Below, piece after piece: positions 30,159-46,094 of a stretch of 64,000 bases of DNA (within the stretch, counting starts at the first letter, position 1; each line of letters opens with the position of its first letter). Both the position numbers and the translations under genes were made by a program. The notes under the pieces were generated by a model that searched no databases, was not told the origin of the DNA, and saw only the letters and a program-made list of their open reading frames with translations. The stretch lies in the NCBI GenBank assembly GCA_030431095.1, contig JAUIJU010000002.1, positions 22,092 to 86,091 on the forward strand, written 5' to 3'. This DNA is from Gammaproteobacteria bacterium (GTDB lineage Bacteria; Pseudomonadota; Gammaproteobacteria; Xanthomonadales; SZUA-36).

Positions 30159-30270
30159 CCTGGCCAGGAACGGCGTGGCGAAGCAGCGCCCATCCTAGCC
30201 CAAGACCCGTCTCCGCCAAAGGTCCCCGTGGCCGGTCACGTTCCGGCAATGCAATTGGGATTAGAATACC

Positions 30271-31098
30271 GTGGTGGCGCATTCACCTCCCAAGCACGAC
30301 ACGCCCCGGCATTTGCGGCTGTTGACCTTCAACATCCAGTCCGGCACCCCGGCCAACAGTTACCGTGAATACCTCACCAACAGCTGGCGACAGGTGCTGC
30401 CCAGCGCGGTGCGCATCGAAAACCTGGACGCCATTGCGGGCCTGGTCATGGACTACGATATGGTTGGCTTACAGGAAGTGGATTCGGGCAGTCTGCGTTC
30501 CGGATTCATCAACCAGTCGCGCTATATCGCCACTCACGCGGCCCTGCCCTACTGGTTTCACCAGTCCAACCGCAAGGTGGGAACGATGGCCTACTCCGGC
30601 AACGGCTTCCTCGCCCGTTACCAGCCCGACGCCATCGAGGAACACCGCCTGCCCGGCGCGATTCCCGGCCGCGGGGCGCTGTTTCTGAATTTTGGCGGAG
30701 CGTCCGGCCTGACCATCGCCGTCGTGCACCTGGCGCTGGGCCAGCTGGCCCGGGGCGCGCAACTGAAATACCTGTGCAGGAAACTGCAGGGGCGGCGCCA
30801 CGTGGTGGTGATGGGAGATTTCAATGCTGGCGCGGACAGCACCAAGCTACGCAATTTCTGTGAGCGGCTGGACCTGGACGCGCCAACGCGCGATCTGCCC
30901 AGTTATCCTTCGTGGAAGCCACAACGCGCGCTGGATCACGTGCTGGTCAGCCGCACCCTGGTCACGGGGTCAGCTGAGGTCATCGACGTGGGGTATTCGG
31001 ACCACCTGCCGGTGGGGCTGAAAATCGAGGTGCCCGAAGGGCTGCAACTGAAGAGTGCGGAACCGCCCCTGGCAGGATTCGAGGCCGTGCGCGGCTAA
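30271..31098 (+). CDS. Endonuclease/exonuclease/phosphatase family protein
   Basis: TFNI, LQEVD, GDFN, LDH, SDHLP motifs. Confidence 0.9.
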   Translation: MVAHSPPKHDTPRHLRLLTFNIQSGTPANSYREYLTNSWRQVLPSAVRIENLDAIAGLVMDYDMVGLQEVDSGSLRSGFINQSRYIATHAALPYWFHQSNRKVGTMAYSGNGFLARYQPDAIEEHRLPGAIPGRGALFLNFGGASGLTIAVVHLALGQLARGAQLKYLCRKLQGRRHVVVMGDFNAGADSTKLRNFCERLDLDAPTRDLPSYPSWKPQRALDHVLVSRTLVTGSAEVIDVGYSDHLPVGLKIEVPEGLQLKSAEPPLAGFEAVRG

Positions 31099-31111
31099 TT
31101 CCGCCCGGGCG

Positions 31112-31321
31112 TCAGTAGAGAAAGAAGTTGAGGCCGGTCAGGGCCGCGTAGCCCAATCCGAGGATCCCGCCCACGTACAGCAGACCACGCAGGAAGGAGT
31201 GCCATTGCTCGGAACGGTACTCGGCCTGGATGTCGCGGTGCAGTTTCATCCACTGCACCTCGAGGTCGCCGTTAAAGACGAAATTGCCGTTGTCATCGTA
31301 CTGGATGGGATCGTTACGCAT
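31112..31321 (-). CDS. Small hypothetical protein with C-terminal TM helix
   Basis: 69 aa ORF, host-like codon usage, co-oriented with the upstream lipoprotein. Confidence 0.55.
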   Translation of the reverse strand: MRNDPIQYDDNGNFVFNGDLEVQWMKLHRDIQAEYRSEQWHSFLRGLLYVGGILGLGYAALTGLNFFLY

Positions 31322-31360
31322 GGGAACCTGTCCGCCCGCACCGTGTGCGAAGCGTTGTTG

Positions 31361-31831
31361 TCAGCTGCAGTTGGTCTTGACGGTGTCACCGCTCACGTCG
31401 GAATAGCATCGCAGCGTGCTCTCACTCGGCGAATGGGTCACTTCCCAGTAGAGCTGTCCGTTGGGTGCGACGCGTTTGAGCGGGGGCTTCACGCCATTGT
31501 TCGCCGTTTGCGTTCCGAGCGTCCCAGGAAAGCCTTCAGGGTAGGTGAAGAGAAACTGCTGGTCTCGCTGCTGGGTATCGCAGACATTGATGGTGGAGAC
31601 CCGCGCCTGGGCGCCGCTGTCCCACTCGACCATGATCGGCTTGGTGCCCATGCAGCCGCCTTCCTGGAAATCAGCCGAGCCGGTGTAGGCCAGGGTGACC
31701 GGGGCATGGCCCCAGAACTTGCCGCCTTCGTAAATGGCGGCGCCCGGCGGTTCAGATTCGATGGTCAGCAGGACCTGCGAAGAACAGGCGCTGAGCAGGC
31801 AGGCAGCAAGTACGGCGATTCCCCTTTTCAT
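31361..31831 (-). CDS. Lipoprotein with PEGA-like domain
   Basis: Lipobox LSAC; TIESEPPGAAIY..G.AP PEGA-like motif; 4 further Cys. Confidence 0.72.
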   Translation of the reverse strand: MKRGIAVLAACLLSACSSQVLLTIESEPPGAAIYEGGKFWGHAPVTLAYTGSADFQEGGCMGTKPIMVEWDSGAQARVSTINVCDTQQRDQQFLFTYPEGFPGTLGTQTANNGVKPPLKRVAPNGQLYWEVTHSPSESTLRCYSDVSGDTVKTNCS

Positions 31832-32007
31832 CCCGGTTCCTTCCCTCTAATTTCTGGTTGCATCATGCGCCTTTACACGCATCGCTTCAAATGTATGAAA
31901 TACCCCGCCAACCACTTCATTGCAGGGTGAAGGGCGACCTAATTGAACATACGCGAAAGCCGCCCAAACCATCTCACCGAAACAGGCGCGATCGGGATAA
32001 ATAGGTT

Positions 32008-32289
32008 TCACCCTCTTGAACCGGTGATTTCACGGCGCGACAATGCGCCCGGTGACGCTGCCGGGGTCGCTGCAGTCGTTGCCACCGAAACGCGGGAGTG
32101 CGCACTCCCGCGTTTCTTTTTTCTTCGGGTCGTCAGCGCCAGGCCGGCGACCAGGGCAAGCCCAAATCCAACGGCGCCGCCGATCCACAACGCCACCCCA
32201 CCGATATAGGCGAACCACAGTCCCGGCACCACTGCGTAAAGGGCGTAGTGGGCCAGGAACTGCACCAGGTTGTCGACTCGCTTGTGCAT
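32008..32289 (-). CDS. Small hydrophobic membrane protein with basic RRKKKR segment
   Basis: GGAGA RBS before ATG; two TM-like segments; 3' part antisense to the sRNA. Confidence 0.55.
   Translation of the reverse strand: MHKRVDNLVQFLAHYALYAVVPGLWFAYIGGVALWIGGAVGFGLALVAGLALTTRRKKKRGSAHSRVSVATTAATPAASPGALSRREITGSRG
32016..32044 (+). promoter_or_regulatory. Sigma70-like promoter of putative sRNA
   Basis: TTGAAC-17 bp-GACAAT. Confidence 0.6.
32051..32122 (+). ncRNA. Putative ~72-nt two-hairpin sRNA
   Basis: Promoter upstream; hairpin 1 GGTGACG-CTGC/loop CGGGGTCGCT/GCAG-T-CGTTGCC; hairpin 2 perfect AAACGCGGGAGTGCGCACTCCCGCGTTT followed by a T-tract; no plausible + strand CDS ends here. Confidence 0.7.
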
Positions 32290-32389
32290 GCACTGTCTCC
32301 CGAATTCATTCAGTCGACAGTTTCCATTGACGCCCGTTCCGGCGCTTGACCCGATCAGACATTCTGTTGACGAAATAATACGCGCTGAA

Positions 32390-33226
32390 TCAGCGAGTTG
32401 AAGCGGGGTTCATCTCGGCGAGCCCCTCCACGGCGAGGAATCTGCCGCCGTCTTCGATGGGGGGGACCATGGCCAGGTTGCGCTCCATTTCCCGTGGATC
32501 ACGATAGGGCCTGCCGTGATCCAGGTGCAGGAGGTTGGCGGTCCAGCGAACGGTGGAGGCAGTAACGCCGAAATTGGCCAGGCGGTTGCCGAAATCACCG
32601 TCCTCGAAACCGTAGCTGAAACGATTGTCGAAGCCGTTGACCGCCAGTGCGTCGCTGCGCCAGCAGGCGGAATTGGAACCCAGCCAGTAGAGTTTCGTGG
32701 TCGAGAATCGATTGAGCCGCCCGCGCACTCCGCGCGGCAGGGAGAGTTTTAGGTACCGGCGGTTCCAGCGCCCGCCGGTGCGCCGCAGCCAGGTGCTGTC
32801 GAACACCGTGCCCTCCGTGATCAGCGGCTTGCTGACGGCCCCGGACAGGGCTTCGTCCAGGCGGATGATGGCGCCATTCTGGTACCGACCTGGCCTGGCG
32901 GCCAGGCGGTGTTCGCTCACATAGTCCGGGTGGGCGACGCAATCGCCGTCGAGGAACACCAGGTAGTCGGCCTGCGTGGCCTGGATGCAGCGATTGAGGA
33001 TGCGGGTTTTGCGGAAGCCCTGGTCTGACTGCCACTGGTGATTAATTCTTTCTTCGAAGAAGTCTCTATAACTATCTATAATTTCTTTAGTTTCATCTCC
33101 GGAACCGTCGTCGGCAATCAGCAGTTCGAAGCCCTGGTCGCGCTGCCGGGTAAGGGCGAACAGGCAGCGATCAAGGTGCTTCGGCTGCTGGTACGTGGAG
33201 ACGATGAGCGCCATGGTGAAGGCCAT
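32390..33226 (-). CDS. Glycosyltransferase family 2 (with galactosyltransferase-like C-terminal domain)
   Basis: IVSTY, ADDGS, FLDGDC, NGFD..YGFEDGD, LLHLDH. Confidence 0.9.
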   Translation of the reverse strand: MAFTMALIVSTYQQPKHLDRCLFALTRQRDQGFELLIADDGSGDETKEIIDSYRDFFEERINHQWQSDQGFRKTRILNRCIQATQADYLVFLDGDCVAHPDYVSEHRLAARPGRYQNGAIIRLDEALSGAVSKPLITEGTVFDSTWLRRTGGRWNRRYLKLSLPRGVRGRLNRFSTTKLYWLGSNSACWRSDALAVNGFDNRFSYGFEDGDFGNRLANFGVTASTVRWTANLLHLDHGRPYRDPREMERNLAMVPPIEDGGRFLAVEGLAEMNPASTR

Positions 33227-33281
33227 GGCCGAGAGTGTACGACACCCCCTGCCCCACGCTCCAACCACCGGCACCCGGCGA

Positions 33282-35465
33282 TCAGTCTCCCAGTGGCGTT
33301 CCCCGGGCCGCCATGACCCGGCGCAGCCCCGTTTCGACCTCGTCCTGGCGCGCGATCGCGGCGCGTTCCAGGACCCTGGAAATGCTCGGTGAGGCTTCGC
33401 CGCCGTGCACCCGCTCCACCGGCTGGTCCAGCCAGTCGAGACAGCGTCTCTGGACTTCGTCCGCCAGCCAGCCGCCGTAGGAGGTGCCCAGGGCGCCTTG
33501 CTCCACGATCAGTACGTTGTGGGTTTTACGCACGCTGGCCTCGACCGTTTCCCAGTCCAGGCCGGCTCGGTCGAGCGAGCGCAGGTCGATGACCTCGGCA
33601 TCTACGCCCAGCGCGTCCGCGGCGGCCACGCTTTCGCCCACCATCGAGAGATAGGTGAGCACAGTCAAGTCGTTGCCGGGACGCGCCACCCGGGCGCTGC
33701 CCAGAGGAATGTAATAGTCGAGATCGTCTTCGGGAATATCGCCGCGCTCGGCGTACAGGTCGACGTGCTCGAGCACCAGTACCGGGTCGCGGCATTCCAG
33801 CGCCGCGTTCATCAGCCCCACGTAGTCGAACGGCGTGGCCGGCGCCACGATGCGCCAGCCCGGGGACGTGGCGAAGATGCCGGCAGGGTCCATGGAGTGC
33901 TGCGATCCGTAACCGGTGCCCATGGCGACCTTGGTGCGCAGCACCAGCGGCACATCGGTGTCGCCGCCGAACATGTGGCGAAACTTGGCCACCTGGTTAA
34001 AGACCTGGTCCGCGGCCACCCACAGGAAGTCCGGGTACATGAACTCCACCACGGGCTTGTGCCGGCCGTCCGTGGCCAGGCCGCCGGCCAGGCCGATAAA
34101 GGCATTCTCGCTGATCGGCGTGCCCAGCACGCGATCGGGAAAGTCCTCCGCCAGGCCACGGGTGGCGCCGTTGGTGCCGCCCTTCAGGCGATGAATGTCC
34201 TCGCCCATGCAGACGATGGACTCATCCTGCGACATGCGCCGGTGCATGACGGAAGCCACCGCCTGGACGAAGCGGACCGATTTCATCGGGCCGTCGAAAC
34301 CGTCCTGCTCGGCGGTGCGCACCCCGGCCAGCTCCTGCAGGTCGCCACGAACGCCTACGTCCACGAAGGCGCGGTCGGGCCAGAGCTCCGGGCGGATGCG
34401 CCGCCCCTGCCCTTCAGGCTCCACGATGCGCTCGACGCAGCGCGCCATCAGATCCTGTGCCCGGCCGCGCAGCGCATCGAGATCGGCCTCGGTCAGCAAC
34501 TGGCGCTGCACCATGGCCATGCCCACGCGCGTCAGCGGGTCGCGCTGGCGCCAGTCTGCTTCTTCTTCCTTGCTGCGGTAACCGAATGCACTGCCCGCCA
34601 GCGGTCCGTTCTGGTGAAAGTAGCGATAGCAATCGGCCTCGATGATGGCCGGACCACCACCGGTGCGCAGGGTGTCCAGCGCGGCGTCGGTGGCCAGCTT
34701 GACGGCCAGTGGGTCCATGCCGTCCACGCGCCAGGCGGGGATGCCGAAGCCCTGTCCGCGGCCGGACAAACGGTGCTCGCGGGTCACCTCTTCGACGTGG
34801 GTGGCCACCGCGTACAGGTTGTTCTCGATAAAGAACAGCAGGGGCAGGTCCCATGCCGCGGCCAGGTTCATGGTTTCCAGCACCGAACCGATATTGACCG
34901 CGCCGTCACCGAAATAGGTGACCGCCACGTCGCCCGCGCCCGCGCGTCGGTGGGCGAAGGCCGCGCCGGCTGCCGAGGGCACGCCGCCGCCCACGATGGC
35001 ATTGCTGCCCAGCACACCAGCCTCGGCCCAGCGCAGGTGCATGGAGCCGCCACGGCCCTTGCAGAAGCCGTCCCGGAGACCGGCGATTTCCGCCAACGTG
35101 CGGTACAGCAGATGCTCCACGGGCTCGCCGAATCCGGCCAGTGGATCGAACTTGGGCTGCACGTGGTACAGGGCCTTGGCCAGGAACTGGTGGTGGGCGC
35201 GGTGCGAACCGTTCACCTGGTCACTGGACCGCAAGGCGATGCACGAGCCGATGGCCCCACCTTCCTGTCCGATGGAGGAATGCGCGGGGCCGTGGACCAG
35301 GCCTTCACCGGCCAGTTCCAGCACGGATTCCTCGAAGGCGCGCACCAGGTGCAGTCCGGTGAGCAGATTGCCCAGCAGATCGGCCGGCGCCTCCGCCCAG
35401 TCACTTTCCGTGGCGGCGAGGTCGAACCAGTCCGCGCCGGGCTGGAGGGGTGTCAATTCAGGCAT
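33282..35465 (-). CDS. Fused 2-oxoacid dehydrogenase E1 alpha/beta subunit
   Basis: HSSIGQEG, GRGGSMH, GDGA..N ThDP motif, TPISE, SQHS, IDLRSL; ATG 35465 with GGAG RBS. Confidence 0.9.
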   Translation of the reverse strand: MPELTPLQPGADWFDLAATESDWAEAPADLLGNLLTGLHLVRAFEESVLELAGEGLVHGPAHSSIGQEGGAIGSCIALRSSDQVNGSHRAHHQFLAKALYHVQPKFDPLAGFGEPVEHLLYRTLAEIAGLRDGFCKGRGGSMHLRWAEAGVLGSNAIVGGGVPSAAGAAFAHRRAGAGDVAVTYFGDGAVNIGSVLETMNLAAAWDLPLLFFIENNLYAVATHVEEVTREHRLSGRGQGFGIPAWRVDGMDPLAVKLATDAALDTLRTGGGPAIIEADCYRYFHQNGPLAGSAFGYRSKEEEADWRQRDPLTRVGMAMVQRQLLTEADLDALRGRAQDLMARCVERIVEPEGQGRRIRPELWPDRAFVDVGVRGDLQELAGVRTAEQDGFDGPMKSVRFVQAVASVMHRRMSQDESIVCMGEDIHRLKGGTNGATRGLAEDFPDRVLGTPISENAFIGLAGGLATDGRHKPVVEFMYPDFLWVAADQVFNQVAKFRHMFGGDTDVPLVLRTKVAMGTGYGSQHSMDPAGIFATSPGWRIVAPATPFDYVGLMNAALECRDPVLVLEHVDLYAERGDIPEDDLDYYIPLGSARVARPGNDLTVLTYLSMVGESVAAADALGVDAEVIDLRSLDRAGLDWETVEASVRKTHNVLIVEQGALGTSYGGWLADEVQRRCLDWLDQPVERVHGGEASPSISRVLERAAIARQDEVETGLRRVMAARGTPLGD

Positions 35466-35522
35466 GGTTGTCTCCGACACGACCGGGCCGGCGCCACGGC
35501 GCCGGCCCGGAACGCAACACGG

Positions 35523-37706
35523 TCAGTAGCGGTAGTCGACCTGCACACCCCAACTGGCGGGTGCGCCGTAGATGTGGTTGTTGCCCAGGAAGCCGGCCGC
35601 CGAGAAAATCAGGTACTCCTCGTCCAGCACGTTGTTGCCATAAACCGACACGCCCCAGGTGCCCTCTTCCGAGGTCCAGCCGGCGCGCAGCGCGAGCAGG
35701 CCGTAGCTGTCCTGCGTCAGCTCGTTACCGGGTGACAGCGGGATGTCGTCGGTCCAGTAGTAGTTGCCGGAGAGATCCAGGCTGCCGCCGCTGGCCAGCG
35801 GACGCACGTAATTGAGGGCCACGCTGCTGGTCCATTCCGGTGTGCGAATCATCTGGCGGCCGGAGAAGTCCGTGGGCACCACGGCGAAACCGTAGCTCGG
35901 CGGGAAGTACGGGTCGCCCGAAATGCCCTGGCCGATATATTCCTTGTATTCGGCATGCGTGTAGGCAACGCCCATGTTCACGGTCAGGTTGTCCGTCAGG
36001 TTGGCGCCGAAGTGCGCTTCCCAGCCGTAGGTTTCCGCCTTGGGCGCGTTGTCCAGCACGAAGCAGGCGCACTCGTTGTTGAAGATGTAGACCTGCAGGT
36101 TGTCGTAGTCGGAGAAATACACCGCCGTGTCAAAGGTCCAGCCGTCGACATCCACCTTGTAGCCGATTTCATACTGCGTGATTTCTTCCGGGTCGACGGG
36201 TGTCTGCGGTCCGACCTGGGTGTAGATGTAGTTGCCGCTCATGAAGCCGCGGCTGACGGAGGCGTACAGGCTGGAAATGTCGGAGGCCTGGTGGCGCAGC
36301 ACCACGCGTGGCGTGAACTCGGTCCAGCGCTCTGAATCGGTGAAGTAGACGAACGGGTCGAGCAGGCCCTGGCTGACCAGTTCCTTCTCTTCCGACGTGA
36401 AACGCCCACCCAGGGTGAGAAACCAGTCCTCGGCGAACTCGAACACACCGTCGGCGTAGACGCCGATGGAGTCGGTGGTGACTTCGGCGTCCGAGTAGAG
36501 CCAGTTGGTCCGCGTACCGGTGTTGAAGAAGTCGTTGTAGGCGTTGTTTCGCAGGGAACCCACGTCGTGGTAGTAGAACACGCCGGCCACCCAGTCCAGG
36601 CGGCCTTCTCCGGCGTTGCCGATGTTGATTTCCTGGGTGAAGGTCTTTTCCTTCTCGGTGTATTCCACCTGCCAGTACTGCACCGTGGTGCCGTCGAGGT
36701 CGGCACGGATGTCCGCCTCCTGGTCGCGGTACTGGGTGTACCAGTTCACGTCCAGGCCGGCCAGGTCGAATTCGCCGTGCAGCTGGGCCGCGAAGGCCTG
36801 CGGGTTGGCCATGACGTCGTAGTTGAACGAGTTCTTGTACGGCTCGATGGTGTGCACGATGGGCACGCCGAATGCATCGTTGTAGAACTGCGCGATGGGC
36901 TGCCGGCTGACCTGGGCCAGGCCCGTGGGATCATTGATGTCGGTGTACTCCAGGGTCAGCACCCACTTGGTGGTATCACTGGGCATCCACAGGAGCTTGC
37001 CGCGTGCCGCCTTGTAGTCCAGTGGCGCGGTGGGTTCGCCGGTGGCGATGTTGTCGAAATAGTTGTCGCTTTCGCGGTAGTACAGGGACCAGTCCATGGC
37101 GAACGTGTCGCTCAGGCCGGTGGTGCCGTACACGGAGGCGCGACGATCATCCCAGCTGCCCACGGCCAGGCGAAAATGCCCGGAGGATTCGAACTGGGGA
37201 TCCGGCGTCTTGATCAGGATGGCGCCGCCGGTCGCATTCTGGCCGAATAGCGTGCCCTGCGGCCCTTTCAGCACGTCAACACGTTCGATGTTGGTGAACT
37301 CGAACAGGTTGCCGGCCTGGCTGGGCATGTAAAAGCCGTCCATGTAGATGGCCACGTTTGCGTTGGCCCCAGGCCCTTGTACGTCCTGCGTGCCGATGCC
37401 GCGGATGGTTGGCTGGGCATAGGCGCCGTAGTGATCGACCCGAAGCCCGGGCACCACCGTGTTCAGGTCGAACAGGCCGGTCACGACGGCCGCGTCGAGC
37501 TGTTGTTCGGAGAGGCTGGAAATGGAAATCGGTACGTCCAGCAGCCGTTCCTCGCGGCGCTGGGCGGTGACCATCACCTCTTCCAGGGCGCCGGCGCCTG
37601 CCTCGGCCTCCTGGGCGTTGACATGGGTAGGTACGGTGGCGGCGAGCGCCAGGAGCATGGCGCCTGCCAGCGGTGTGCGAACGATCTGGATTCCACGGTA
37701 TTTCAT
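35523..37706 (-). CDS. TonB-dependent receptor
   Basis: Signal peptide from ATG 37706; LEEVMVTAQRRE, IERVDVLKGPQGTLFG. Confidence 0.92.
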   Translation of the reverse strand: MKYRGIQIVRTPLAGAMLLALAATVPTHVNAQEAEAGAGALEEVMVTAQRREERLLDVPISISSLSEQQLDAAVVTGLFDLNTVVPGLRVDHYGAYAQPTIRGIGTQDVQGPGANANVAIYMDGFYMPSQAGNLFEFTNIERVDVLKGPQGTLFGQNATGGAILIKTPDPQFESSGHFRLAVGSWDDRRASVYGTTGLSDTFAMDWSLYYRESDNYFDNIATGEPTAPLDYKAARGKLLWMPSDTTKWVLTLEYTDINDPTGLAQVSRQPIAQFYNDAFGVPIVHTIEPYKNSFNYDVMANPQAFAAQLHGEFDLAGLDVNWYTQYRDQEADIRADLDGTTVQYWQVEYTEKEKTFTQEINIGNAGEGRLDWVAGVFYYHDVGSLRNNAYNDFFNTGTRTNWLYSDAEVTTDSIGVYADGVFEFAEDWFLTLGGRFTSEEKELVSQGLLDPFVYFTDSERWTEFTPRVVLRHQASDISSLYASVSRGFMSGNYIYTQVGPQTPVDPEEITQYEIGYKVDVDGWTFDTAVYFSDYDNLQVYIFNNECACFVLDNAPKAETYGWEAHFGANLTDNLTVNMGVAYTHAEYKEYIGQGISGDPYFPPSYGFAVVPTDFSGRQMIRTPEWTSSVALNYVRPLASGGSLDLSGNYYWTDDIPLSPGNELTQDSYGLLALRAGWTSEEGTWGVSVYGNNVLDEEYLIFSAAGFLGNNHIYGAPASWGVQVDYRY

Positions 37707-37848
37707 CGACGATACCTTTTGCGAATGACTGAGCCAGGGGGGTGTCGAAGCGCACCGGTTGCCGGTGTCTTTCTGTTGTACGTCCGCTGCAACCGGCGGT
37801 TCGAACCGCGGCGTCAGTCTGACCGAGCAGGACGCGCCTGTCAATAAA

Positions 37849-37920
37849 TTGTATCCGATTATCCAAATGACACCCGAAATTCGGGTGAAATAGCGCATCT
37901 ATATTGATTGATGTATCCAA
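37849..37920. promoter_or_regulatory. Candidate GntR operator region in divergent promoter
   Basis: TTGTATCCGA (37849) and ATGTATCCAA (37911); palindrome CACCCGAAATTCGGGTG (37871-37887). Confidence 0.6.
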
Positions 37921-38007
37921 TTTATGCCACGATGGGCCCTGTGAACCATTGAACCAGGTCACGAACCTGGCGTTCAGTCCTGGCCGGCTCCGGAGAACAC
38001 CAAGACA

Positions 38008-38571
38008 ATGACCGACCCTGAAAACGCCCCGTCGGCGCAGACCGGCATACCCGGTTTGCGCGGTACCGACCACATCGGATTCACCGTACCCGACATCGAA
38101 CAGGCCACCCGCTTTTTCGTCGACGTCATCGGTTGTGAACTGATTTACAGCCTGGGTCGCATCGAGGACGCCGAGGGCGACTGGATGCAACGTCACCTGG
38201 GCGTCGACCGTCGGGCGGTGGTGAACGACTTGCGACTGCTGCGTTGCCGCCACGGCGCCAATTTCGAAATCTTCGAATACGAAGTGCCGGAACAGGTCAG
38301 CACGCCTCCGCGCAACAGCGACGTGGGCGGCCATCACCTGGCCTTTTACGTGGATGATTTCGACCTCGCCCTGGACTACCTGCGCGAGCAGGGCCTGCGC
38401 ATTCTCGGCGAACCGACGGTGCGGCACGAAGGCCCCAGCGCGGGCCAGACCTGGGTGTATTTTCTCTCGCCCTGGGGCATGCAACTCGAGTTGCTGAGCT
38501 TTCCCGGCGGCAAGGGCTACGAACGCGACGCCACCACCCTGCTGTGGCACCCGGCCCACCCGGCCGACTGA
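38008..38571 (+). CDS. VOC/glyoxalase-family protein
   Basis: DHIGFTVPD, EIFEY, GGHHLAFYVDD, YFLSPWGMQLEL (H/E/H/E metal ligands). Confidence 0.88.
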   Translation: MTDPENAPSAQTGIPGLRGTDHIGFTVPDIEQATRFFVDVIGCELIYSLGRIEDAEGDWMQRHLGVDRRAVVNDLRLLRCRHGANFEIFEYEVPEQVSTPPRNSDVGGHHLAFYVDDFDLALDYLREQGLRILGEPTVRHEGPSAGQTWVYFLSPWGMQLELLSFPGGKGYERDATTLLWHPAHPAD

Positions 38572-38584
38572 CAGGAACCGCACC

Positions 38585-39787
38585 ATGATCCAGGACATCA
38601 CCCTTCCCTCCTTCGGTTCCTCGGTGGGCGAAGCCACCGTGGTGGAATGGCTGGTCGAGCCCGGCAGCGCGGTGTCGGCCGGACAGCTCATCGCGGAGAT
38701 CGAAACCGACAAGGCCATGGCCGAGCTCGAAGCGCCGGCTGACGGCGTGATCGAATCGATCGAAGTGGCAGCCGGCAGCGAGGGGGTCGAAGTGGGTTCG
38801 GTGCTGGCGCGCCTGCGCACGGCGGGTGAAGCCGAGCCGCCGACGGAAGAGACGGCCACCACGCCGGCGCCGCCGGAACGACCGGAATCGCCCGCACCCG
38901 GCGCCCTGGCATCGCAGGTACAGACCCCGCCCGCGGTCCACGCGGACAGCGAGCGGACCCTGGCCTCCCCGTACGCCCGGAAGCTGGCCCGGGAAAACGA
39001 TCTCGAGCTGGCCGGCCTGCCCGGCTCGGGCCCGGGCGGACGCATCGTGAGCCGGGACCTGGAAGAGCTGGCTTCGACCGCCGCGCCCACCGACGTCCTG
39101 GCGCAATACGGTTTTGCACCGGACAGCTACCGGCTCGAACCCCTGAGCCGCATGCGGCGCGCCATCGCGCAGGGACTGACCCAAAGCAACCGGGACATTC
39201 CCCATTTCTCGCTGACCGTGGACCTGGACCTTGCCGCCGTGCTGGCCCACCGCGCGGCCTGGCCGGGCGACAAGCCGCCCAGCATCAACGACTACCTGCT
39301 GTGGGCCTGCGCACGCGCCCTGCTGGATGTGCCGGCCGCCAACACCTCCTGGACCGAAGATGGCATCGCCTGGCATGCGCAGGCCAACGTGGCGGTTGCC
39401 GTGGCCCTGGAAGATGGCCTGGTGACACCGGTCATCCACGACGCGGGTTCGCTGACGCTGGAAGCCATGGCGCTGGCCAGCCGCGATGCCGTGAACAAGG
39501 CGCGGTCCGGAGCCCTGAAAACCCGGGACCTGCAGGGCGCCACCTTCACCGTGTCCAACCTGGGGATGATGGGCATCCGTTCCTTCAATTCCATCCTGAG
39601 CGCGCCGCAGTCCTGCATCCTGTCGGTGGGCGTGGCGGAAGAACGTGCGGTGGTGCGCGGAGGCGAACTGGCTGTCGCCACCCAGGTGACGGTCACCCTG
39701 ACCTGTGATCACCGGGCGGTGGACGGCGCCGTGGGTGCGCGCTACCTGCAGGCCCTGGCGGCGCGACTGGACGCGCCCGGCGACTGA
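38585..39787 (+). CDS. Dihydrolipoamide acyltransferase (E2)
   Basis: Lipoyl motif ETDKA, E3-binding ASPYARKLA..GSGPGGRI, catalytic DHRAVDG. Confidence 0.92.
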   Translation: MIQDITLPSFGSSVGEATVVEWLVEPGSAVSAGQLIAEIETDKAMAELEAPADGVIESIEVAAGSEGVEVGSVLARLRTAGEAEPPTEETATTPAPPERPESPAPGALASQVQTPPAVHADSERTLASPYARKLARENDLELAGLPGSGPGGRIVSRDLEELASTAAPTDVLAQYGFAPDSYRLEPLSRMRRAIAQGLTQSNRDIPHFSLTVDLDLAAVLAHRAAWPGDKPPSINDYLLWACARALLDVPAANTSWTEDGIAWHAQANVAVAVALEDGLVTPVIHDAGSLTLEAMALASRDAVNKARSGALKTRDLQGATFTVSNLGMMGIRSFNSILSAPQSCILSVGVAEERAVVRGGELAVATQVTVTLTCDHRAVDGAVGARYLQALAARLDAPGD

Positions 39788-39852
39788 TCGAGACGCCGGG
39801 GTCCGTTGCAGGACCCGGATGCGTCATTCAGGGTGCAAGGGTGCGACCCCGA

Positions 39853-40545
39853 TCAGCCCCCGTCCGCGCCGACCCCGTCGAACAGCTCGGGATGGCGCAC
39901 CAGTTGCTGCCGGGTGCGACGGATGTGCATGGTCAGAACGTTCCCGGCGTCCACCGTGTCGCGCCGCCGAATGGCTTCCATCAGCAATCGGTGTTCGGCA
40001 TTGATGATCCAGTTGCCCTGCTGCCACACCATCTTGGTGTAGGCCCTGCGGTAGTGCTGCGTGGTGTTCCAGAAGCGCTCCACCAGGGCCTTGAGCTGGG
40101 GCATGGGCGCTGCCGCGTAGCTCGACAGGTGAAAGGCGCGGTCCAGCTTGAGAAACACATCGCTGTCGCGTGTTGCCTCCATTTCCGCGACCTGCTCGTC
40201 CAGGCCAGACACGTCCTCGTCGCTCATGTGCGGAATGGATTCTGACAGCGCCAGCGGCTCGACCAGTTCACGGATCTTGTAGATCTCGGCGAACTCGTCC
40301 AGCTCCAGCCGCGCCACCCGGGCGCTGGAATTGGGCGTGAGCAGCACCAGGCCCTCGCTTTCCAGCTGGCGTAGGGCGTCACGCACGGGGATGCGGCTGG
40401 TGCCGAAGCGCTGGGCCAGGGCGTCCTGGCCAATGCGGATGCCCGGCGGCAGTTCGCCCGAGAGAATCAGGTCGCGGATGCCGCTGGTCACCTGTTGACC
40501 GAGCGGAACGCTTTTGCCCATTTCCGCCGCTTCCTGCCTTGCCAT
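39853..40545 (-). CDS. GntR-family regulator with FCD domain
   Basis: LAQRFGTSRIPVRDAL wHTH; DRAFH..EH FCD motifs. Confidence 0.9.
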   Translation of the reverse strand: MARQEAAEMGKSVPLGQQVTSGIRDLILSGELPPGIRIGQDALAQRFGTSRIPVRDALRQLESEGLVLLTPNSSARVARLELDEFAEIYKIRELVEPLALSESIPHMSDEDVSGLDEQVAEMEATRDSDVFLKLDRAFHLSSYAAAPMPQLKALVERFWNTTQHYRRAYTKMVWQQGNWIINAEHRLLMEAIRRRDTVDAGNVLTMHIRRTRQQLVRHPELFDGVGADGG

Positions 40546-40621
40546 GCGTATTGTCTCCTTGCCGATCTTGCGTGTTGTCCGGGTTTCGGCTCGTGCAACG
40601 AGCCAGCGGCAAACGCCGCGT

Positions 40622-42034
40622 TCAGACCTGGCCGCGCACCCGCTCGATGGTTTCCCGAGGCAGGGTCAGGGCCGAGGCGAAGTAGTGCAGCGCGCCCCAG
40701 AGGTAGAAACCCAGGGTGACCAGAATACCGTATCGGGTGCCTTCGGCCACCGCCGCCCGGCACTGCGCATCCAGCGCGGCCCCACCGCCTTCGGCGCCAA
40801 TGCCGCCCGGGCACAACTCGACGAAGCTCCCCGTGGCGGCCACGGTGGCCTGGGCGTGAAACAGCCATTCGCTGAAGTTGTCGATCATCCAGCCCGACAG
40901 GGGCGGCCCGACGCCCAGGCCGAGCAGGTTGACGATGAACAGCAGCAGCGCCGCCGAGGTGGCCCGCATGGGTCCAGGCATGGCGTTCTGGATCAGGGCG
41001 AAGGTCGGCCCCGAGTACATGAAATGAAACACCCCGGGCAGGAACAGCAGCCAGGCGGCCGCCGTCCAGCTGGTGCTGGTGTAGACCAGCACGTAGAGCG
41101 GCAGCGCGACGGCCGCGCCGATGCCGGGCACCAGTGCGTACCAGCGGGGATTCCTGCGCCCCCGGCGATCGGCCAGCCAGCCGCCCAGCAAAGTACCCAG
41201 GGCGCAGCTGAGACCGCCCACCAGGCCGAACACCAGGCCCACGGCCGTGTAGCTCACGCCGAATGCGCGGATGAAATACGCCTGCGCGTAGGTCGAAGTG
41301 CCGTAAGCGGCCAGCGACACCAGGGTGCAGCCCACCACCAGGTGGAGCAGCCCCCAGTTGCCGAACAGGCCGCGAACCACCGTGAACAGCGAGGGCGTGT
41401 CCACGGCGGATGATGCGCCCGCCAGGTGACGCTCGGACCAGCCCCGGGGCGGCTCCTTCACGAACAGCTTGATGGCCAGGGCCACGGCCAGTCCCGGCAG
41501 ACCGACGATCAGGAAGGCGATGCGCCAGGAGAAATGGTCCGCCAGCCAGCCCCCGGCCGCTGCACCGAACATCACCCCCAGGGGGATGCCCAGGGCGTAG
41601 ATGGACAGCGCAAAGCCACGTTTGGCCGGCGCGTAATAGTCCGAAACCAGGGAATGCGCCGGCGGTGACAGGCCGGCCTCTCCCACCCCGACGCCCATGC
41701 GCATCACCAGCAGCTGCAGGTAACTTCCGGCCAGGCCGCAGGCGGCGGTGAACGCCGACCACAGCGCCACCGCCGCGGCGATGATGTTCACCCGCTTGCC
41801 ACGGTCGGCCCAGCGGGCGATGGGGATACCGAGCACCGTGTAGAACACCGCGAAGGCCAGGCCGCCCAGCAGGCCCAGCTGCGTGTCCGTCAGTTGCAGG
41901 TCTTCCTTGATGGCCTGGCCGATGGTGTAAATGATCGTGCGGTCGATGAAATTGAAGGTATAGGCCAGCACCAGCAGGCCGAGGACGCCGCTGCGGTAGC
42001 GCTGTGAATAGTCGGGATCTCGGATCTCAGGCAT
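40622..42034 (-). CDS. MFS transporter (spinster-like)
   Basis: FNFIDR, DTQLGLL, RMGVGVGEA..PPAHSLVSDYY. Confidence 0.9.
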   Translation of the reverse strand: MPEIRDPDYSQRYRSGVLGLLVLAYTFNFIDRTIIYTIGQAIKEDLQLTDTQLGLLGGLAFAVFYTVLGIPIARWADRGKRVNIIAAAVALWSAFTAACGLAGSYLQLLVMRMGVGVGEAGLSPPAHSLVSDYYAPAKRGFALSIYALGIPLGVMFGAAAGGWLADHFSWRIAFLIVGLPGLAVALAIKLFVKEPPRGWSERHLAGASSAVDTPSLFTVVRGLFGNWGLLHLVVGCTLVSLAAYGTSTYAQAYFIRAFGVSYTAVGLVFGLVGGLSCALGTLLGGWLADRRGRRNPRWYALVPGIGAAVALPLYVLVYTSTSWTAAAWLLFLPGVFHFMYSGPTFALIQNAMPGPMRATSAALLLFIVNLLGLGVGPPLSGWMIDNFSEWLFHAQATVAATGSFVELCPGGIGAEGGGAALDAQCRAAVAEGTRYGILVTLGFYLWGALHYFASALTLPRETIERVRGQV

Positions 42035-42035
42035 T

Positions 42036-42106
42036 TTGTATCCAATCAGTCATTATTCGCCCGTCAAGCGGGCCAACTCTACCGGATTGGCTGAGATTTG
42101 GATACA
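42036..42106. promoter_or_regulatory. Second pair of candidate GntR operator boxes
   Basis: TTGTATCCAA (42036) and inverted TTGGATACA (42098) upstream of the MFS-GntR unit. Confidence 0.6.
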
Positions 42107-42183
42107 TGGAACATGTAGTTCCCCGGCCGTACCCGTTGTGTGCAAGCACTGCCCAATCTGGCCGGCTATCGCGGCGGCCCGGT

Positions 42184-42978
42184 TCAGCGAGCGCCGGAAT
42201 CGAGAAAATCGCTGACCAGGCGAACCGTCAGTCCGGGCTGATCGGTGGTGAACACGTGGCTGGCATCGTCCAGCAGTTGCAGCCGGGCGCCGGGAATGTG
42301 CTTCGCCAGCAGTTCCCCGTTGGCCGGCGGCACCAGGCGGTCATTGCGGCCATGCAGGATCAGCGTGGGCGTGTGGAGTTGATCGAGTCGATCATGGGAC
42401 GACCAGCGACCAACCGCCTCGATCTGCGCCAGGTAGGTCTCCGCCTCGGGCCAGTTCGCCAGCCGCACCGCCATGTCGGCTTCGATGCGTTCACGGGGCG
42501 TGGCGCTGTCGTAAATGTAGGGAATCATCGCCCGCACCCCTTCTTCCGGTGGCATGTGCGCCCGGGCCATGAGTACGTCCAGCACTTCCTGGTCGGCGAA
42601 CACCGAGCCTTCTCCCAGGCTGGCGGTGCAACCCAGGACCAGGGAGTCCACCCGGTCCGGGTGAGACAAGGCCAGCTCCTGGGCGATGTACCCCCCCATG
42701 GAGATGCCGAACACGTGCGCCGAGCCCTCTCCGGCCGCATCCAGCACGGCGGCGGCGTCCGCCGCCATGTCCGAAATGTCGATCGCCCCTCGAGCCGAAC
42801 CGCTGCGGCCAATCCCCCGATTGTCGAATACGATCACGCGGAAGCGCCCGGCCAGCGCCTCCTCGACGTGCTGCCACATGTCAGAGGAGTACCCGAGGCC
42901 CATGATGAGCAGCAACGGCTCGCCGCTGCCGCGGCTGCGCCAGAAAAGCGGCGTGTCTCGGTGGTGGGTCATGGGCAT
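42184..42978 (-). CDS. Alpha/beta hydrolase
   Basis: DNRGIGRS, GISMGG nucleophile elbow, HGRNDRLVP, ASH. Confidence 0.9.
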   Translation of the reverse strand: MPMTHHRDTPLFWRSRGSGEPLLLIMGLGYSSDMWQHVEEALAGRFRVIVFDNRGIGRSGSARGAIDISDMAADAAAVLDAAGEGSAHVFGISMGGYIAQELALSHPDRVDSLVLGCTASLGEGSVFADQEVLDVLMARAHMPPEEGVRAMIPYIYDSATPRERIEADMAVRLANWPEAETYLAQIEAVGRWSSHDRLDQLHTPTLILHGRNDRLVPPANGELLAKHIPGARLQLLDDASHVFTTDQPGLTVRLVSDFLDSGAR

Positions 42979-43035
42979 GATCAGGAAGTGTTTGTCGTCA
43001 TGGTTGAATGGAACGGTTGTGGTCTGTCGGCCACG

Positions 43036-44706
43036 CTAGGGCATCGACCTGCGCCGGGCAGAACACAGGAGCAAGGGGCGGCGAAATCGATTCCTGATGA
43101 CCTCGCAGGCGGACTCCTCGAACGCCAACCCGTGAAATTCCGCATCATCTCGCGCGATGCCCGCTTCACCCTCGGCGTAAAGAACATAGAACCGTCCCGA
43201 ATGCCCCGAGATCGCTTCCGTCATTGTACGACCCAGCCCGTTGTCGTAAGCCTGTGCCAGGCTCTGGTAGCCCTGGTCGTACCGAATGTTGCCACCAGTC
43301 CGTACGAAACGCGCTGAAGCAGGCGCGGAGGGCACCAGGAAGGACATGGCCTCGCCACCGGCAACGATGACCAGCGCACCGTCCAGCGGCATGCCGGCAG
43401 GCCAGCTGACCTCGAATGGAGTGTCCGCCCAGGCGCGCCGGGGTCCCCATGGGTACGGCTTGCTCCAGCTGGGCACCGCGGAGGCGATCATGGCGATGAT
43501 CAGCACGCCAAGCCAAGCGCTGCGCGCCTTGCCCCAATGGCCGTACAGCCCCAGGGCCGCCAGCAGGAGCACGGGAACCAGTAGCTCCAGGACCATGACG
43601 TAGCGAACGACGGGAAACACCGTCAGCCAGAGCCCGTAGGCCACTGCGCTGAACACCAGCAACACGGATGCGCCGAGCACCGGTTGCGACGAAGCGCTCC
43701 AGCCGCGCCTGGTCGACAGCCACGCGAAAACCGGAATGGCCAGCAATGCCAGGGCCATCCGCAGGTCACCGAACTGCTGGCGTGAGATGGACGTGCCAAA
43801 CGGGTTGTAGAACCACGGATACAACACGGCGTGCAACATCGTGGGTGGATCGAACCGGTTGTCCGTGTAGGCGCCCTGCCCCACGAAATCCGAAGCGAAC
43901 AGGTTATTGAACTGGGGAAAGAAGGGATTGCCCAGTTCTGCCCACAGCTTCATGCCCCAGGGTCCGTAACTGAGCAGAAACCCGAACAGGCCGCCGATCC
44001 CCACGAAAACGACGGCTGGACCGCGATCCCGGTACGCCCGGGAGAGCGGCAGGGCGGCGCAGGCGCCCGCCACCAGGTACGGGGCATTGGTCAGCTTGAG
44101 GCCCGTCGCCACGCCCAGTATCAGGCCCGCCGTCACCAGGCAACCCGATACGGCGTCCAGGCGGGCGTTGCCCCGGTCCTGTCGGGCTGTCATGCCGAAT
44201 ACCAGCAAGGCGACGCCCGCGAGCACCAGGGTGGCGGTCAGGCTGTCACCAAAACTGGTGCCCACCTGGGCCAGGTGACCCGGTGCGACCATGGCCACGA
44301 CGGTCAGCAGTTGCGCGACCCAGGGCGCGGTTCGATTCGTCGCGCCGACTTCACTCGCCAGTCTCCAGGCCAGCAGGAACAGGAACGGCGCCTTCAGGCC
44401 CTGCACGACGGCAATCGCGGCGCCGGCGTCCCTCATGCCGAACCGCTCGCTCAACCAAAACAACGGCACGTCGAGATAGGGGCTGAAAAACGACTGCCTC
44501 TGGGCTGGCTGTATATCGACGGCCCAGCGGTCGTGGAGCCAGGCGAAGGGGTTGTAGTAGTGGTAGTTGAGCAGGTCCCAGTTCATGTCCTGCCCGGCCA
44601 TTCCGGACAGCGCCACGAATCCCCCCGCCCAGGCGAGGGCATTCAGCGCCAGGAACCACGACACCCGCCGGTCGATGCGGTTTGAGCGTCGTTGGTCGTC
44701 TTTCAT
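43036..44706 (-). CDS. Polytopic membrane protein, GT-C glycosyltransferase-like
   Basis: QDMNWDLLNYHYY loop after TM1, GLKLTN, GNPFFPQFN, many TM segments. Confidence 0.65.
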   Translation of the reverse strand: MKDDQRRSNRIDRRVSWFLALNALAWAGGFVALSGMAGQDMNWDLLNYHYYNPFAWLHDRWAVDIQPAQRQSFFSPYLDVPLFWLSERFGMRDAGAAIAVVQGLKAPFLFLLAWRLASEVGATNRTAPWVAQLLTVVAMVAPGHLAQVGTSFGDSLTATLVLAGVALLVFGMTARQDRGNARLDAVSGCLVTAGLILGVATGLKLTNAPYLVAGACAALPLSRAYRDRGPAVVFVGIGGLFGFLLSYGPWGMKLWAELGNPFFPQFNNLFASDFVGQGAYTDNRFDPPTMLHAVLYPWFYNPFGTSISRQQFGDLRMALALLAIPVFAWLSTRRGWSASSQPVLGASVLLVFSAVAYGLWLTVFPVVRYVMVLELLVPVLLLAALGLYGHWGKARSAWLGVLIIAMIASAVPSWSKPYPWGPRRAWADTPFEVSWPAGMPLDGALVIVAGGEAMSFLVPSAPASARFVRTGGNIRYDQGYQSLAQAYDNGLGRTMTEAISGHSGRFYVLYAEGEAGIARDDAEFHGLAFEESACEVIRNRFRRPLLLCSARRRSMP

Positions 44707-44734
44707 TGGTGGCAACAGATCAACGGATTGCCGT

Positions 44735-44971
44735 TCAGGAGGATTCGACCGTGAAACGGTCCGCCAGATCCGCGACTGCGCGGCAGATTTCACCGGCCGC
44801 CACGCCAAAAATCGGCCAGGCCCAGCGCGGCTCCAGGGGCTGCAGACCGAACTGCCAGATCGACAGGAGGTAGCCGGGAACGATGAGCAGGAGCAGAATG
44901 AGGGAAAAGACGGTCAGGAACCGTCCGGTCAATCGAAGCAGCAAGTAGCGGCCTGGTGTGCGTGAGCGCAT
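44735..44971 (-). CDS. Small membrane protein
   Basis: 78 aa with 2 hydrophobic segments, GAGAGA upstream, co-oriented with the GT-C-like gene. Confidence 0.5.
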   Translation of the reverse strand: MRSRTPGRYLLLRLTGRFLTVFSLILLLLIVPGYLLSIWQFGLQPLEPRWAWPIFGVAAGEICRAVADLADRFTVESS

Positions 44972-45035
44972 TCGGGGTGTCTCTCGAGTTCTTCTGGATG
45001 GTTACCCCCCTTCCCTTCGATCAAGCGGGCACATG

Positions 45036-46094
45036 CTAACCAATCGGTGGGAAGGCGACAATGCGCCTCGTTGACTGATCCGCTCCCGAATGTGCTGTCA
45101 AATGTCGACGATACTGACGGGGGGACATCCCTGTATTGCTGCGAAATGCGCGGGCAAAGTTTGCTGGGGTGGAATAAAACAGTTCAGCTGAAATGTGGGC
45201 AATCGTTAAATCGGGTTCCTGTAACAATTCTTTCGCCCGAAGGAGTTTTACGCTCTGCGCGAGCTCGCGAAACGTGATGCCACGACGTTCCAGTTGACGC
45301 TGCAGCGTTCGCGGCCCGAAACCCAATTGTCGCGCTGTGCTGTCCAGGTCGGGCTGCTGATCGAGGATCTGTACCCGTGTGATCGACTGCACCACTTCGA
45401 CCAATCCACGTGGAGACCGCCCCCTACGATCACGATGAACATCCGCCAAAGACGGTGAGCCCCTGTTGATTTGCCGACGAAACTTCAGGCAGTGCGCGGG
45501 TACGGGAAATGCAACGGCATCGGCACCGAGCCTTACCTGTGACTGGAACGCCTGTTCGAGCGCCGAACATCCCCGCCGCTTCTGAATATTCAGCTCAATC
45601 CACCCTGGATGCCAGGATTGACCGATGTAGGCACGCACGAGACTCAGCATGACGGCCACTGCGACAAAAGCCACGTTTTCGTACGTGCGGCCAAAGGACT
45701 CAGCGAAACGGTAGATGAACCGGATGTCCTGACCCTGTGGCACGAAACGCAGCGAGTCGAACGTGCTGTGATAACAAAGAGCGGATCGGGCCCGGTTCAT
45801 AGAGTCCCCGAGCGTGGGCGCCGAGAGCACGTAGTTTCCCCAGAGCCCGTAGTCGAGAATGGACAGTTCAGGCGCGGCAATCAAGCCCAGGTCGCGCTCA
45901 CCCAGTTCGCGGCTGCCTTCTGCGACAAACGACTTGAGTGAAGCCTGCGGGATGAAATGGTTCTTGTCGTAACGCAGGCACGGCGAAAGATCACTTCGTG
46001 AAAACACCCGGTTCAATGCACGTTCGCCGCATTCCTGCGCCAGCAATTCCGGCATTTGACCCAGGGTCAGGGCCGTAATCATGGCGACTGACAT
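45036..46094 (-). CDS. AraC-family transcriptional regulator
   Basis: RTLQRQL, FYSTPANFARAFRSNTGMSPRQYR HTH; N-terminal YGLWG..LSAPTL ligand domain; start uncertain. Confidence 0.88.
   Translation of the reverse strand: MSVAMITALTLGQMPELLAQECGERALNRVFSRSDLSPCLRYDKNHFIPQASLKSFVAEGSRELGERDLGLIAAPELSILDYGLWGNYVLSAPTLGDSMNRARSALCYHSTFDSLRFVPQGQDIRFIYRFAESFGRTYENVAFVAVAVMLSLVRAYIGQSWHPGWIELNIQKRRGCSALEQAFQSQVRLGADAVAFPVPAHCLKFRRQINRGSPSLADVHRDRRGRSPRGLVEVVQSITRVQILDQQPDLDSTARQLGFGPRTLQRQLERRGITFRELAQSVKLLRAKELLQEPDLTIAHISAELFYSTPANFARAFRSNTGMSPRQYRRHLTAHSGADQSTRRIVAFPPIG

Follow-up and report, generated by a model that had tools for sequence, protein, structure and literature searches.

A fused E1, VOC and E2 locus with predicted uptake and GntR operators, related to the bqd-type ring-cleavage system

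Overview

We analyzed a gene cluster at positions 33282..42978 of a 64,000-nucleotide stretch of genomic DNA (hereafter the window) from a Gammaproteobacteria bacterium (assembly GCA_030431095.1, contig JAUIJU010000002.1, positions 22,092 to 86,091). The cluster encodes a fused alpha/beta E1 component that carries thiamine diphosphate (ThDP) motifs, a VOC-family protein, an E2 acyltransferase, a TonB-dependent receptor (TBDR), an MFS transporter and a GntR-family regulator, and it is a variant of the partly characterised bqd-type system. Its E1 and VOC proteins are, by sequence comparison, close homologs of bqd gene products. We tentatively read the locus, at slightly less than even confidence, as a GntR-repressed uptake-and-cleavage module that would import an alpha-hydroxyketone or 1,2-dione acid and cleave it to yield an acyl-CoA and succinic semialdehyde; the imported acid is likely of a type expected from the breakdown of hydroxyquinol. 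An earlier, sequence-only reading of this DNA had suggested an uncharacterised pathway. That suggestion stands insofar as the E1 is not a pyruvate dehydrogenase (PDH), branched-chain 2-oxoacid dehydrogenase (BCKDH) or acetoin dehydrogenase (Aco), but the kinship with bqd-cluster genes takes away part of its novelty.

The E1 and VOC proteins are close homologs of bqd gene products

The E1 aligned over its full length with Aromatoleum anaerobium ABK58621.1 (61%, 440/727) and with a Thauera aromatica protein (63%, 460/731) whose 90% cluster holds AIO06095.1 and entries named "BqdL"; identity to the named Thauera proteins is 62–63%. These named proteins were reached by a search from one of several Burkholderiales E1s that are 60–64% identical to that of the window. 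AIO06095.1 (Thauera aromatica) is named "Benzoquinone dehydrogenase alpha subunit" and APR04338.1 (T. chlorobenzoica) "BqdL"; ABK58621.1 carries only the name "Dehydrogenase", and we treat it as a putative BqdL from its 73% identity to AIO06095.1/APR04338.1. The similarity of the window E1 to BqdL is far above that to other E1s (61–63% vs 29–41%), and VOC and E2 genes are linked to it: the VOC protein is 69% identical (121/175) to T. chlorobenzoica APR04339.1, the accession directly after APR04338.1 in the same organism, and the E2 is 38–42% identical to E2s of bqd-type loci.

The available portion of PMC10084136 assigns hydroxybenzoquinone ring cleavage to bqdLMS, acting after rehLS and btdLS, and describes BtdS as a DoxX-family protein and the pathway genes as controlled by the sigma-54 activators RedR1/2; RehL and pyrogallol transhydroxylase are described as relatives in the accessible part of PMC10100899. 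The open-access main texts searched returned PMC10084136 only for the bqd genes and no paper on the GntR–VOC–E1–E2 group discussed below. Compared with BqdLMS (the A. anaerobium resorcinol cluster, EF078692; AIO06095.1; APR04338.1), the window shares the fused E1 (61–63%), the VOC protein (65–69%) and the E2 (38–42%), the last of which presumably corresponds to BqdM. In bqd-type loci the genes lie in a row as E1–VOC–E2, whereas the window E1 is divergent from VOC–E2; predicted GntR operators take the place of RedR1/2 control (PMC10084136, as far as available), a TBDR and an MFS transporter are added for uptake, and no reh/dbh, btd, M24, old yellow enzyme (OYE) or CobW genes are found at the window locus.

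Ten genome loci carry a BqdL-like E1 that is 65–86% identical to named BqdL-type proteins or to close relatives of these. An intact VOC gene lies between E1 and E2 in eight of them (a fragment in one, none called in one), DoxX and hydroxyacid dehydrogenase genes occur in four, and a molybdenum (Mo) enzyme pair resembling pyrogallol transhydroxylase occurs in one. The last, G632:C1, combines a tripartite ATP-independent periplasmic (TRAP) transport system, the Mo pair (matching pyrogallol transhydroxylase at E 1.5e-299 and 1.6e-68), M24, E1, E2 and E3; the cluster (L129:6056 to L130:4129) also holds a cupin and an aldehyde:ferredoxin oxidoreductase. A second bqd-type cluster of G632 lies on C3, and there, as in G714, we found DoxX, hydroxyacid dehydrogenase, OYE, M24, CobW, E1, VOC and E2.

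Layout of the locus

All seven predicted open reading frames were intact, and their order and orientation bear out the layout first described: TBDR–E1 diverges from VOC–E2, which converges on MFS–GntR. The features are as follows.

33282..35465, minus strand: fused E1 alpha/beta ThDP enzyme, 727 aa; BqdL family, HQ-loop type (see below)
35523..37706, minus strand: TBDR, 727 aa; 87.5% identical to the G004 ortholog
37846..37861, unstranded: predicted GntR operator 1, core TTGTATCCGAT; divergent promoter
37908..37923, unstranded: predicted GntR operator 2, core ATGTATCCAAT; 62 bp from operator 1
38008..38571, plus strand: single-domain VOC protein, 187 aa; His22/Glu87/His110/Glu161
38585..39787, plus strand: E2 dihydrolipoamide acyltransferase, 400 aa; lipoyl Lys43, E3-binding domain, catalytic His376 (DHRAVDG)
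39853..40545, minus strand: GntR-family regulator with FCD domain, 230 aa; 49% identical to a representative from actinobacterial loci
40622..42034, minus strand: MFS transporter, 470 aa; same family adjoins E1 in G004, L069 and L209
42033..42048, unstranded: predicted GntR operator 3, core TTGTATCCAAT; the genome's top-scoring site, touching the MFS start codon
42095..42110, unstranded: predicted GntR operator 4, core TTGGATACAT; 62 bp from operator 3
42184..42978, minus strand: alpha/beta hydrolase, 264 aa; Ser93, His241; upstream of the operator pair

The starts at 35465 (E1) and 37706 (TBDR) are the better ones, as exact 727-aa sequences were found in the protein collection. The whole block is syntenic, in the same order, in the same-genus genome G004 (97% complete), with ortholog identities of 82% (E1), 87.5% (TBDR), 78.5% (VOC), 64% (E2), 85% (GntR), 86% (MFS) and 71% (hydrolase). 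Because of this synteny, and because GntR, VOC and E2 genes recur beside E1 in GTDB loci, the clustering goes beyond chance.

Two elements of the earlier description did not hold. The dedicated TBDR, taken there as a hallmark of the locus, was observed beside E1 in the window, G004 and L069; it is a local Gram-negative uptake add-on, not a defining feature. Its closest plasmid matches, at 29–36% identity, are in sphingomonads. The alpha/beta hydrolase, counted there as a module member, lies outside the operator-controlled units, upstream of the second operator pair, and a homolog stands near E1 in 2/80 GTDB loci. We rejected it as a pathway member, and it is probably a flanking gene outside the regulon; its top NCBIfam matches are PcaD-like but under the cut-off.

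The absence of an E3 gene was confirmed for the window's contig, where no lipoamide dehydrogenase match was found. In the host genome (3.23 Mb, 87% complete) the sole lipoamide dehydrogenase over the TIGR01350 cut-off lies on contig C114, after AceE/AceF-like genes, in keeping with the proposed use of a housekeeping E3. This genome has separate AceEF-like (C114), Bkd-like (C90) and Aco-like (C113) operons, named from sequence reading, and therefore the window E1 represents an additional system. Among kin its distribution is patchy, with 2/40 relatives matching at E ≤ 1e-100.

Paired predicted operators suggest one regulon

The TBDR–VOC intergenic region contains two TGKATMC(A/G) sites 62 bp apart; in G004 this pair recurs with a spacing of 63 bp. 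Among 55 divergent promoters, taken from 53 GTDB loci, the window and G004, the motif core occurred in 43, against a shuffle mean of 1.7 and maximum of 6 (500 shuffles); the core set was chosen after seeing the window and G004. An independent test used a matrix built from 54 sites of other loci, with actinobacterial loci as the source and the window excluded. It ranked the window sites at 42033, 37908, 37846 and 42095 as 1, 2, 4 and 7 of the 18 genome hits above 13 bits. Pairs spaced 60–66 bp apart number just two in the 3.2-Mb genome, both at the window locus, where they precede TBDR–E1/VOC–E2 and MFS–GntR; G004 also has an operator pair before its MFS gene. On the strength of the shared operator pairs, TBDR–E1, VOC–E2 and MFS–GntR are predicted to form one regulon, which agrees with the sequence-only view of a self-contained, probably co-regulated catabolic module.

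The operator motif resembles vanO ATTGGATCCAAT, which is bound by the GntR-type VanR according to the available part of PMC5377333. As in Caulobacter VanR/vanO, a GntR-type repressor is accompanied by two ATTGGATCCAAT-like operators in a divergent promoter, and paired vanO-like predicted sites precede each transcription unit, as in a VanR-like regulon. The window sites nevertheless differ in being degenerate (TGKATMCA) and 62–64 bp apart; the genes they would control are others, and there is no vanAB at the locus. Scans for sigma-70 promoters and terminators gave nothing above shuffles, and an Rfam scan of 30000-46000 matched nothing.

The fused E1 is distant from ordinary E1s

The E1 unites E1_dh, Transket_pyr and Transketolase_C domains in one 727-aa chain, with intact catalytic motifs (GDGA..NN, Glu453 and His523). 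Its AlphaFold model (mean predicted local distance difference test score 90.4, predicted template-modelling score 0.91) matched E1 beta chains at target template-modelling (TM) scores of 0.88–0.94 and 29–34% identity. Together with the lipoyl Lys, E3-binding domain and His of the E2 and the genomic E3, the ThDP motif and the Glu/His residues make up the parts of a 2-oxoacid-dehydrogenase-type complex. With PDH and branched-chain E1s (alpha2beta2; PDB 1ni4, 1w85, 1um9, 1qs0) the window E1 shares the fold, GDGA..NN, the catalytic Glu and the beta-His, but it is only 29–38% identical to them, has a 20-residue alpha insertion and an N-terminal extension, and carries Gln in place of the alpha-loop His: Gln285 aligns with human E1alpha His263 (HMMER alignment).

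A PDH, BCKDH or acetoin dehydrogenase identity was rejected. Identity to such E1s is 29–41%, every NCBIfam cut-off was missed (236 vs 394; 221 vs 321; 183 vs 411), and the protein stands separately in the trees, so that the phylogenetic check proposed in the earlier reading came out in its favor. The acetoin dehydrogenase AcoABCL uses ThDP to cleave an alpha-hydroxyketone and passes the acyl group to lipoate and CoA. This likeness lies in the chemistry proposed for the window; the window E1 differs in its fused subunits and in being just 33–34% identical to proteins annotated as acetoin:2,6-dichlorophenolindophenol oxidoreductase alpha, and the split Aco-like operon on C113 (33% identity) is separate.

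The VOC residues His22, Glu87, His110 and Glu161, which we take to be metal ligands, are invariant in 60/60 aligned homologs and align with the metal-site region of 1jc4. A His/Glu/His/Glu pattern in a single-domain VOC protein is of the glyoxalase I/methylmalonyl-CoA epimerase type, which, of the roles earlier considered, fits that of an isomerase or epimerase. An extradiol dioxygenase role was rejected (TIGR03211, 30.9 bits vs a cut-off of 320; fourth ligand Glu87 conserved). An ESM Atlas search placed the VOC protein in unnamed VOC clusters only, and a complex prediction for E1 with VOC as a possible bound subunit scored 0.00, which weighs neither way.

A recurrent GntR–VOC–E1–E2 group and its hydroxyquinol contexts

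Of 7997 candidates scored in the E1 search, 7212 were hits; the top 120, self excluded, are 68–82% identical to the window E1. Matching stretches number at least 568 in GTDB genomes and 513 in metagenomes, making this a large family, generically annotated and often wrongly named "MFS transporter" or "2-oxoisovalerate dehydrogenase". Examples of the former, a propagated mis-annotation, are the fused E1 proteins P0014, P0025, P0079, P0125 and P0303 in NCBI.

We counted neighbors in the best 80 of the 568 confirmed GTDB stretches and in 80 of the 513 metagenome loci. The counts are tallies, not tests; they depend on the codon-model gene caller used, many loci are incomplete and related, and annotation covered 120 of 197 selected singleton neighbors, so rare partners may be missed. 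In the GTDB set E1 was accompanied by E2 in 65 loci, VOC in 58, GntR in 55, succinic semialdehyde dehydrogenase (SSADH)-like aldehyde dehydrogenases (ALDHs) in 43, short-chain dehydrogenases/reductases (SDRs) in 34, M24-fold proteins (DddP-like, below cut-off) in 32, hydroxyisobutyrate-dehydrogenase-like proteins in 25 and ketopantoate-reductase-like proteins in 15; a hydrolase of the window type was present in 2 loci and an MFS of the window type in 1. The metagenome set gave E2 71, GntR 52, VOC 51, ALDH 38 and M24 25. The GntR–VOC–E1–E2 set is found repeatedly in different phyla, frequently accompanied by an SSADH-like enzyme and an M24-fold protein; the VOC–E1 association (58/80 GTDB loci) answers the neighborhood check that the sequence-only reading had called for. 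L069 carries GntR, VOC, TBDR, the window-type MFS, E1 and ALDH, and several proteobacterial loci include their own E3. Two plasmid loci encode a true GabD that scores over the cut-off; the other representatives tested have a paralog that falls below it.

By the residues of the alpha loop, 203 sequences divided into 182 of an HQ type, to which the window belongs, 17 of an HH type and 4 others. M24 proteins of HQ-type loci are 42–56% identical to the M24 protein of a bqd-type locus. Both types occur in the window's own family, since G011 carries an HH enzyme: its locus L093 (G011:C210) encodes a BqdL-subclade protein in the order ALDH–E1–VOC–E2–SDR, with an M24 homolog elsewhere (36%).

Two contexts connect HQ-type loci with phenols. 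On plasmids of Paenarthrobacter SD-1 and R1, VOC–E1–E2 of the same HQ group (E1 57–58%) adjoins a monooxygenase 73.2% identical to the gene beside sulR, the same value that the available portion of PMC10873849 reports for type II sadB. That portion describes SadB as converting 4-aminophenol to 1,2,4-trihydroxybenzene and calls type II sadB expression unclear; its main text, as far as available, does not discuss the E1 genes ("dehydrogenase", "peptidase" and "VOC" are absent). On these 42-kb plasmids, L082:825-19790 (NZ_CP101190.1) and L235 (NZ_CP127118.1), the type II sadB-like gene lies beside an amidase gene and VOC–E1–E2, and the SD-1 plasmid also has M24, hydroxyacid dehydrogenase and flavin reductase genes. 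The set is a candidate for a complete aminophenol-to-acyl-CoA route. The window differs in that its genome is without a SadB homolog. The second context, L052:5500-12190 (Streptomyces), places an HsaA/SadB-like monooxygenase, a LigM-like O-demethylase, VOC and flavin reductase before E1–E2, a possible methoxyphenol route.

A tentative cleavage route and its alternatives

We favor acyloin or dione cleavage over 2-oxoacid decarboxylation as the predicted chemistry, since the recurrent SSADH-type genes suggest an aldehyde product, that is, cleavage beside a carbinol. The TBDR and MFS transporter, to judge from their families and shared operators, would import the substrate, upon which GntR would leave the two predicted operator pairs and TBDR–E1, VOC–E2 and MFS–GntR would be switched on. 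The VOC protein would shift the carbonyl via an enediol, for example from 5-hydroxy-4-oxohexanoate to 4-hydroxy-5-oxohexanoate. E1-bound ThDP, for which the motifs are present, would then attack the ketone and break the adjacent C–C bond as in acetoin dehydrogenase, with no CO2. The acyl group would pass to lipoyl-Lys43 of the E2 and on to CoA at His376, with the Lpd encoded on C114 as the probable reoxidant of lipoate, and GabD, found over the cut-off on contig C14 of this genome and also in G004, could oxidize the semialdehyde to succinate.

In the wider scheme, hydroxyquinol as its cyclohexane-1,2,4-trione tautomer would be hydrolyzed by M24 to 4,5-dioxohexanoate, which would be reduced, isomerized by the VOC protein and split to acetyl-CoA and succinic semialdehyde. 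The pathway of A. anaerobium reportedly ends in acetate and malate. The window organism would import a late intermediate, because M24 and the reductase are absent at the locus and the upstream enzymes searched for were not found in the genome; no close match to the rehLS/dbhLS or btdLS genes of the oxidative hydroxyhydroquinone pathway was found in the cluster or elsewhere in this genome, which is 87% complete.

Several observations weigh against this favored route. The host genome (87% complete) gave no close match to RehL, RehS, SadB, DoxX, BtdL-like, M24 or intradiol dioxygenase proteins, and G004 (97% complete) has no close M24. The SSADH gene lies outside the locus, with no operator among the top matrix hits. 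Many of the sampled loci come from related Microbacteriaceae and cannot be treated as independent. Because the genes called in 168 stretches, mostly HQ-type, contained no RehL-like, DoxX or CobW match and a single SadB-like match at 30%, the link of the HQ group to hydroxyquinol rests on the two contexts above. The window E1 also falls outside the named-BqdL subclade (support 100, both trees) and reads YRYFHQNG at the loop that is YRYFHHGG in BqdL, departing from the pattern YRxFHH(G); for these two reasons its specificity may differ. In FastTree (100 rows) the BqdL subclade is sister to a large HQ group, and in a quick IQ-TREE run on 30 of the same 100 rows it is nested in the HQ group, within an unresolved set that includes the window's branch. 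All in all, the locus probably works like BqdLM but stands apart from it by clade, loop residue, upstream enzymes and regulation.

Alternatively, the module may open the ring itself, which we consider unlikely. Here hydroxyquinol or hydroxybenzoquinone would be imported, the VOC protein would tautomerize it to cyclohexane-1,2,4-trione, and E1/E2/E3 would cleave this cyclic 1,2-dione, yielding either 3-oxoadipyl-CoA or a semialdehyde-CoA and needing neither oxygenase nor M24. VOC, fused E1 and E2 would then, with the same low probability, be a minimal oxygen-independent machine in which a cyclic trione, formed by the VOC protein from hydroxyquinol or reduced hydroxybenzoquinone, is cut straight to a CoA ester. 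ThDP-dependent cleavage of cyclohexane-1,2-dione is known from Azoarcus. BqdLMS is described as a ring-cleaving enzyme in the available part of PMC10084136, the vanO-type regulator, the sphingomonad plasmid matches of the TBDR and the PcaD-like flanking hydrolase point the same way, and the window and G004, having VOC, E1 and E2 only and no M24 or hydroxyacid dehydrogenase, would suit a minimal unit. Against it, however, stand the replacement of the loop His by Gln, the separate place of the E1 in the trees, the modest TBDR identities, the general instability of free quinones as uptake substrates and the frequent SSADH, which has no role unless the product is a semialdehyde. If ring opening were true, many aerobes, streamlined freshwater actinobacteria and sulfonamide degraders among them, would use the trio in place of hydroxyquinol dioxygenase, and the smallest natural version of it would be that of the window, equipped with its own TBDR/MFS uptake.

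It is similarly improbable, in our judgment, that the same chemistry serves a non-aromatic source, with HQ-type enzymes cleaving a common acyloin or dioxo acid and the bqd and sadB contexts being later recruitments. Substrates such as 4,5-dioxovalerate from 5-aminolevulinate, or a sugar or cyclitol hydroxyketone made by neighboring SDRs, would be possible examples. This would account for the pairing of the module with sugar-type ATP-binding cassette (ABC) binding proteins in freshwater actinobacterial loci and with SDRs, shikimate-dehydrogenase-like and quinone-reductase-like genes in proteobacterial loci, for the two glutamate-semialdehyde-aminomutase-like genes of L062, for the operon that joins the 52% relative to genes for a zinc-dependent alcohol dehydrogenase (Zn-ADH), a histidinol-dehydrogenase-like protein and an SDR, and for the nesting of BqdL inside the HQ group in the IQ-TREE tree. 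Set against it are the M24 and VOC families common to the HQ and bqd groups, which suggest a shared intermediate, and the phenol-hydroxylating monooxygenases of two HQ-type contexts.

Least likely is an ordinary but substrate-specific 2-oxoacid dehydrogenase (for example 2,5-dioxohexanoate to levulinyl-CoA, with the VOC protein as an epimerase or glyoxalase before or after it): the heterotetrameric-type E1 fold, the intact ThDP and reductive-acylation residues and the complete E2 agree with it, but the canonical alpha-loop His is Gln, decarboxylation yields no aldehyde and leaves the recurrent SSADH unexplained, E1 neighbors an ALDH or SDR in several loci whose stretch lacks an E2 gene, and AceEF, Bkd-like and Aco-like systems are already present in the genome.

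The kinship with BqdL gives the family a chemical hypothesis and a candidate for the post-SadB step in sulfonamide and aminophenol degraders, and the shared operator offers a handle for a ligand screen toward the substrate. With its three-enzyme version, the window provides a compact system in which to ask whether ring opening or the cleavage of an acyloin acid is within reach of a PDH-like complex. This locus newly contributes a minimal form of three enzymes served by TBDR/MFS uptake, together with the operator pair, the division into HH and HQ types and the sadB context.

Flanking genes and further observations

A GT2 glycosyltransferase gene (window 32390-33226) directly follows E1 on the same strand and is syntenic in G004; it does not recur in other loci, was rejected as a pathway member and is probably host flank. 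Beside the hydrolase, window 43036-44706 encodes a membrane-type protein of ~556-590 aa with no Pfam or NCBIfam match and no counterpart in the compared G004 stretch. Farther on, window 45036-48815 holds an AraC regulator, a DUF1254/DUF1214 protein and an aspartyl-protease-like gene, has lower GC content (0.55 at 46-48 kb) and precedes tRNA-Cys and tRNA-Gly, making it a possible small island. A sequencing-run search found DNA matches in two studies, one labelled biofloc metagenome, and listed no RNA runs; the two best-matching runs may be where the DNA came from.

Two family loci have unusual partners. L062:2914-7740 (Castellaniella) has two glutamate-1-semialdehyde-aminomutase-like genes and a TRAP system before E1, and an amino-keto-acid substrate is possible. 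L111:4347-13581 (G205:C12) groups the 52% E1 relative with an NMT1-type binding protein, histidinol-dehydrogenase-like, SDR, Zn-ADH and VOC proteins and a lipoyl/hydrolase-fused E2. Its operon recalls the hpsNOP sulfonate genes and, by that analogy, may be an undescribed route of dihydroxypropanesulfonate cleavage.

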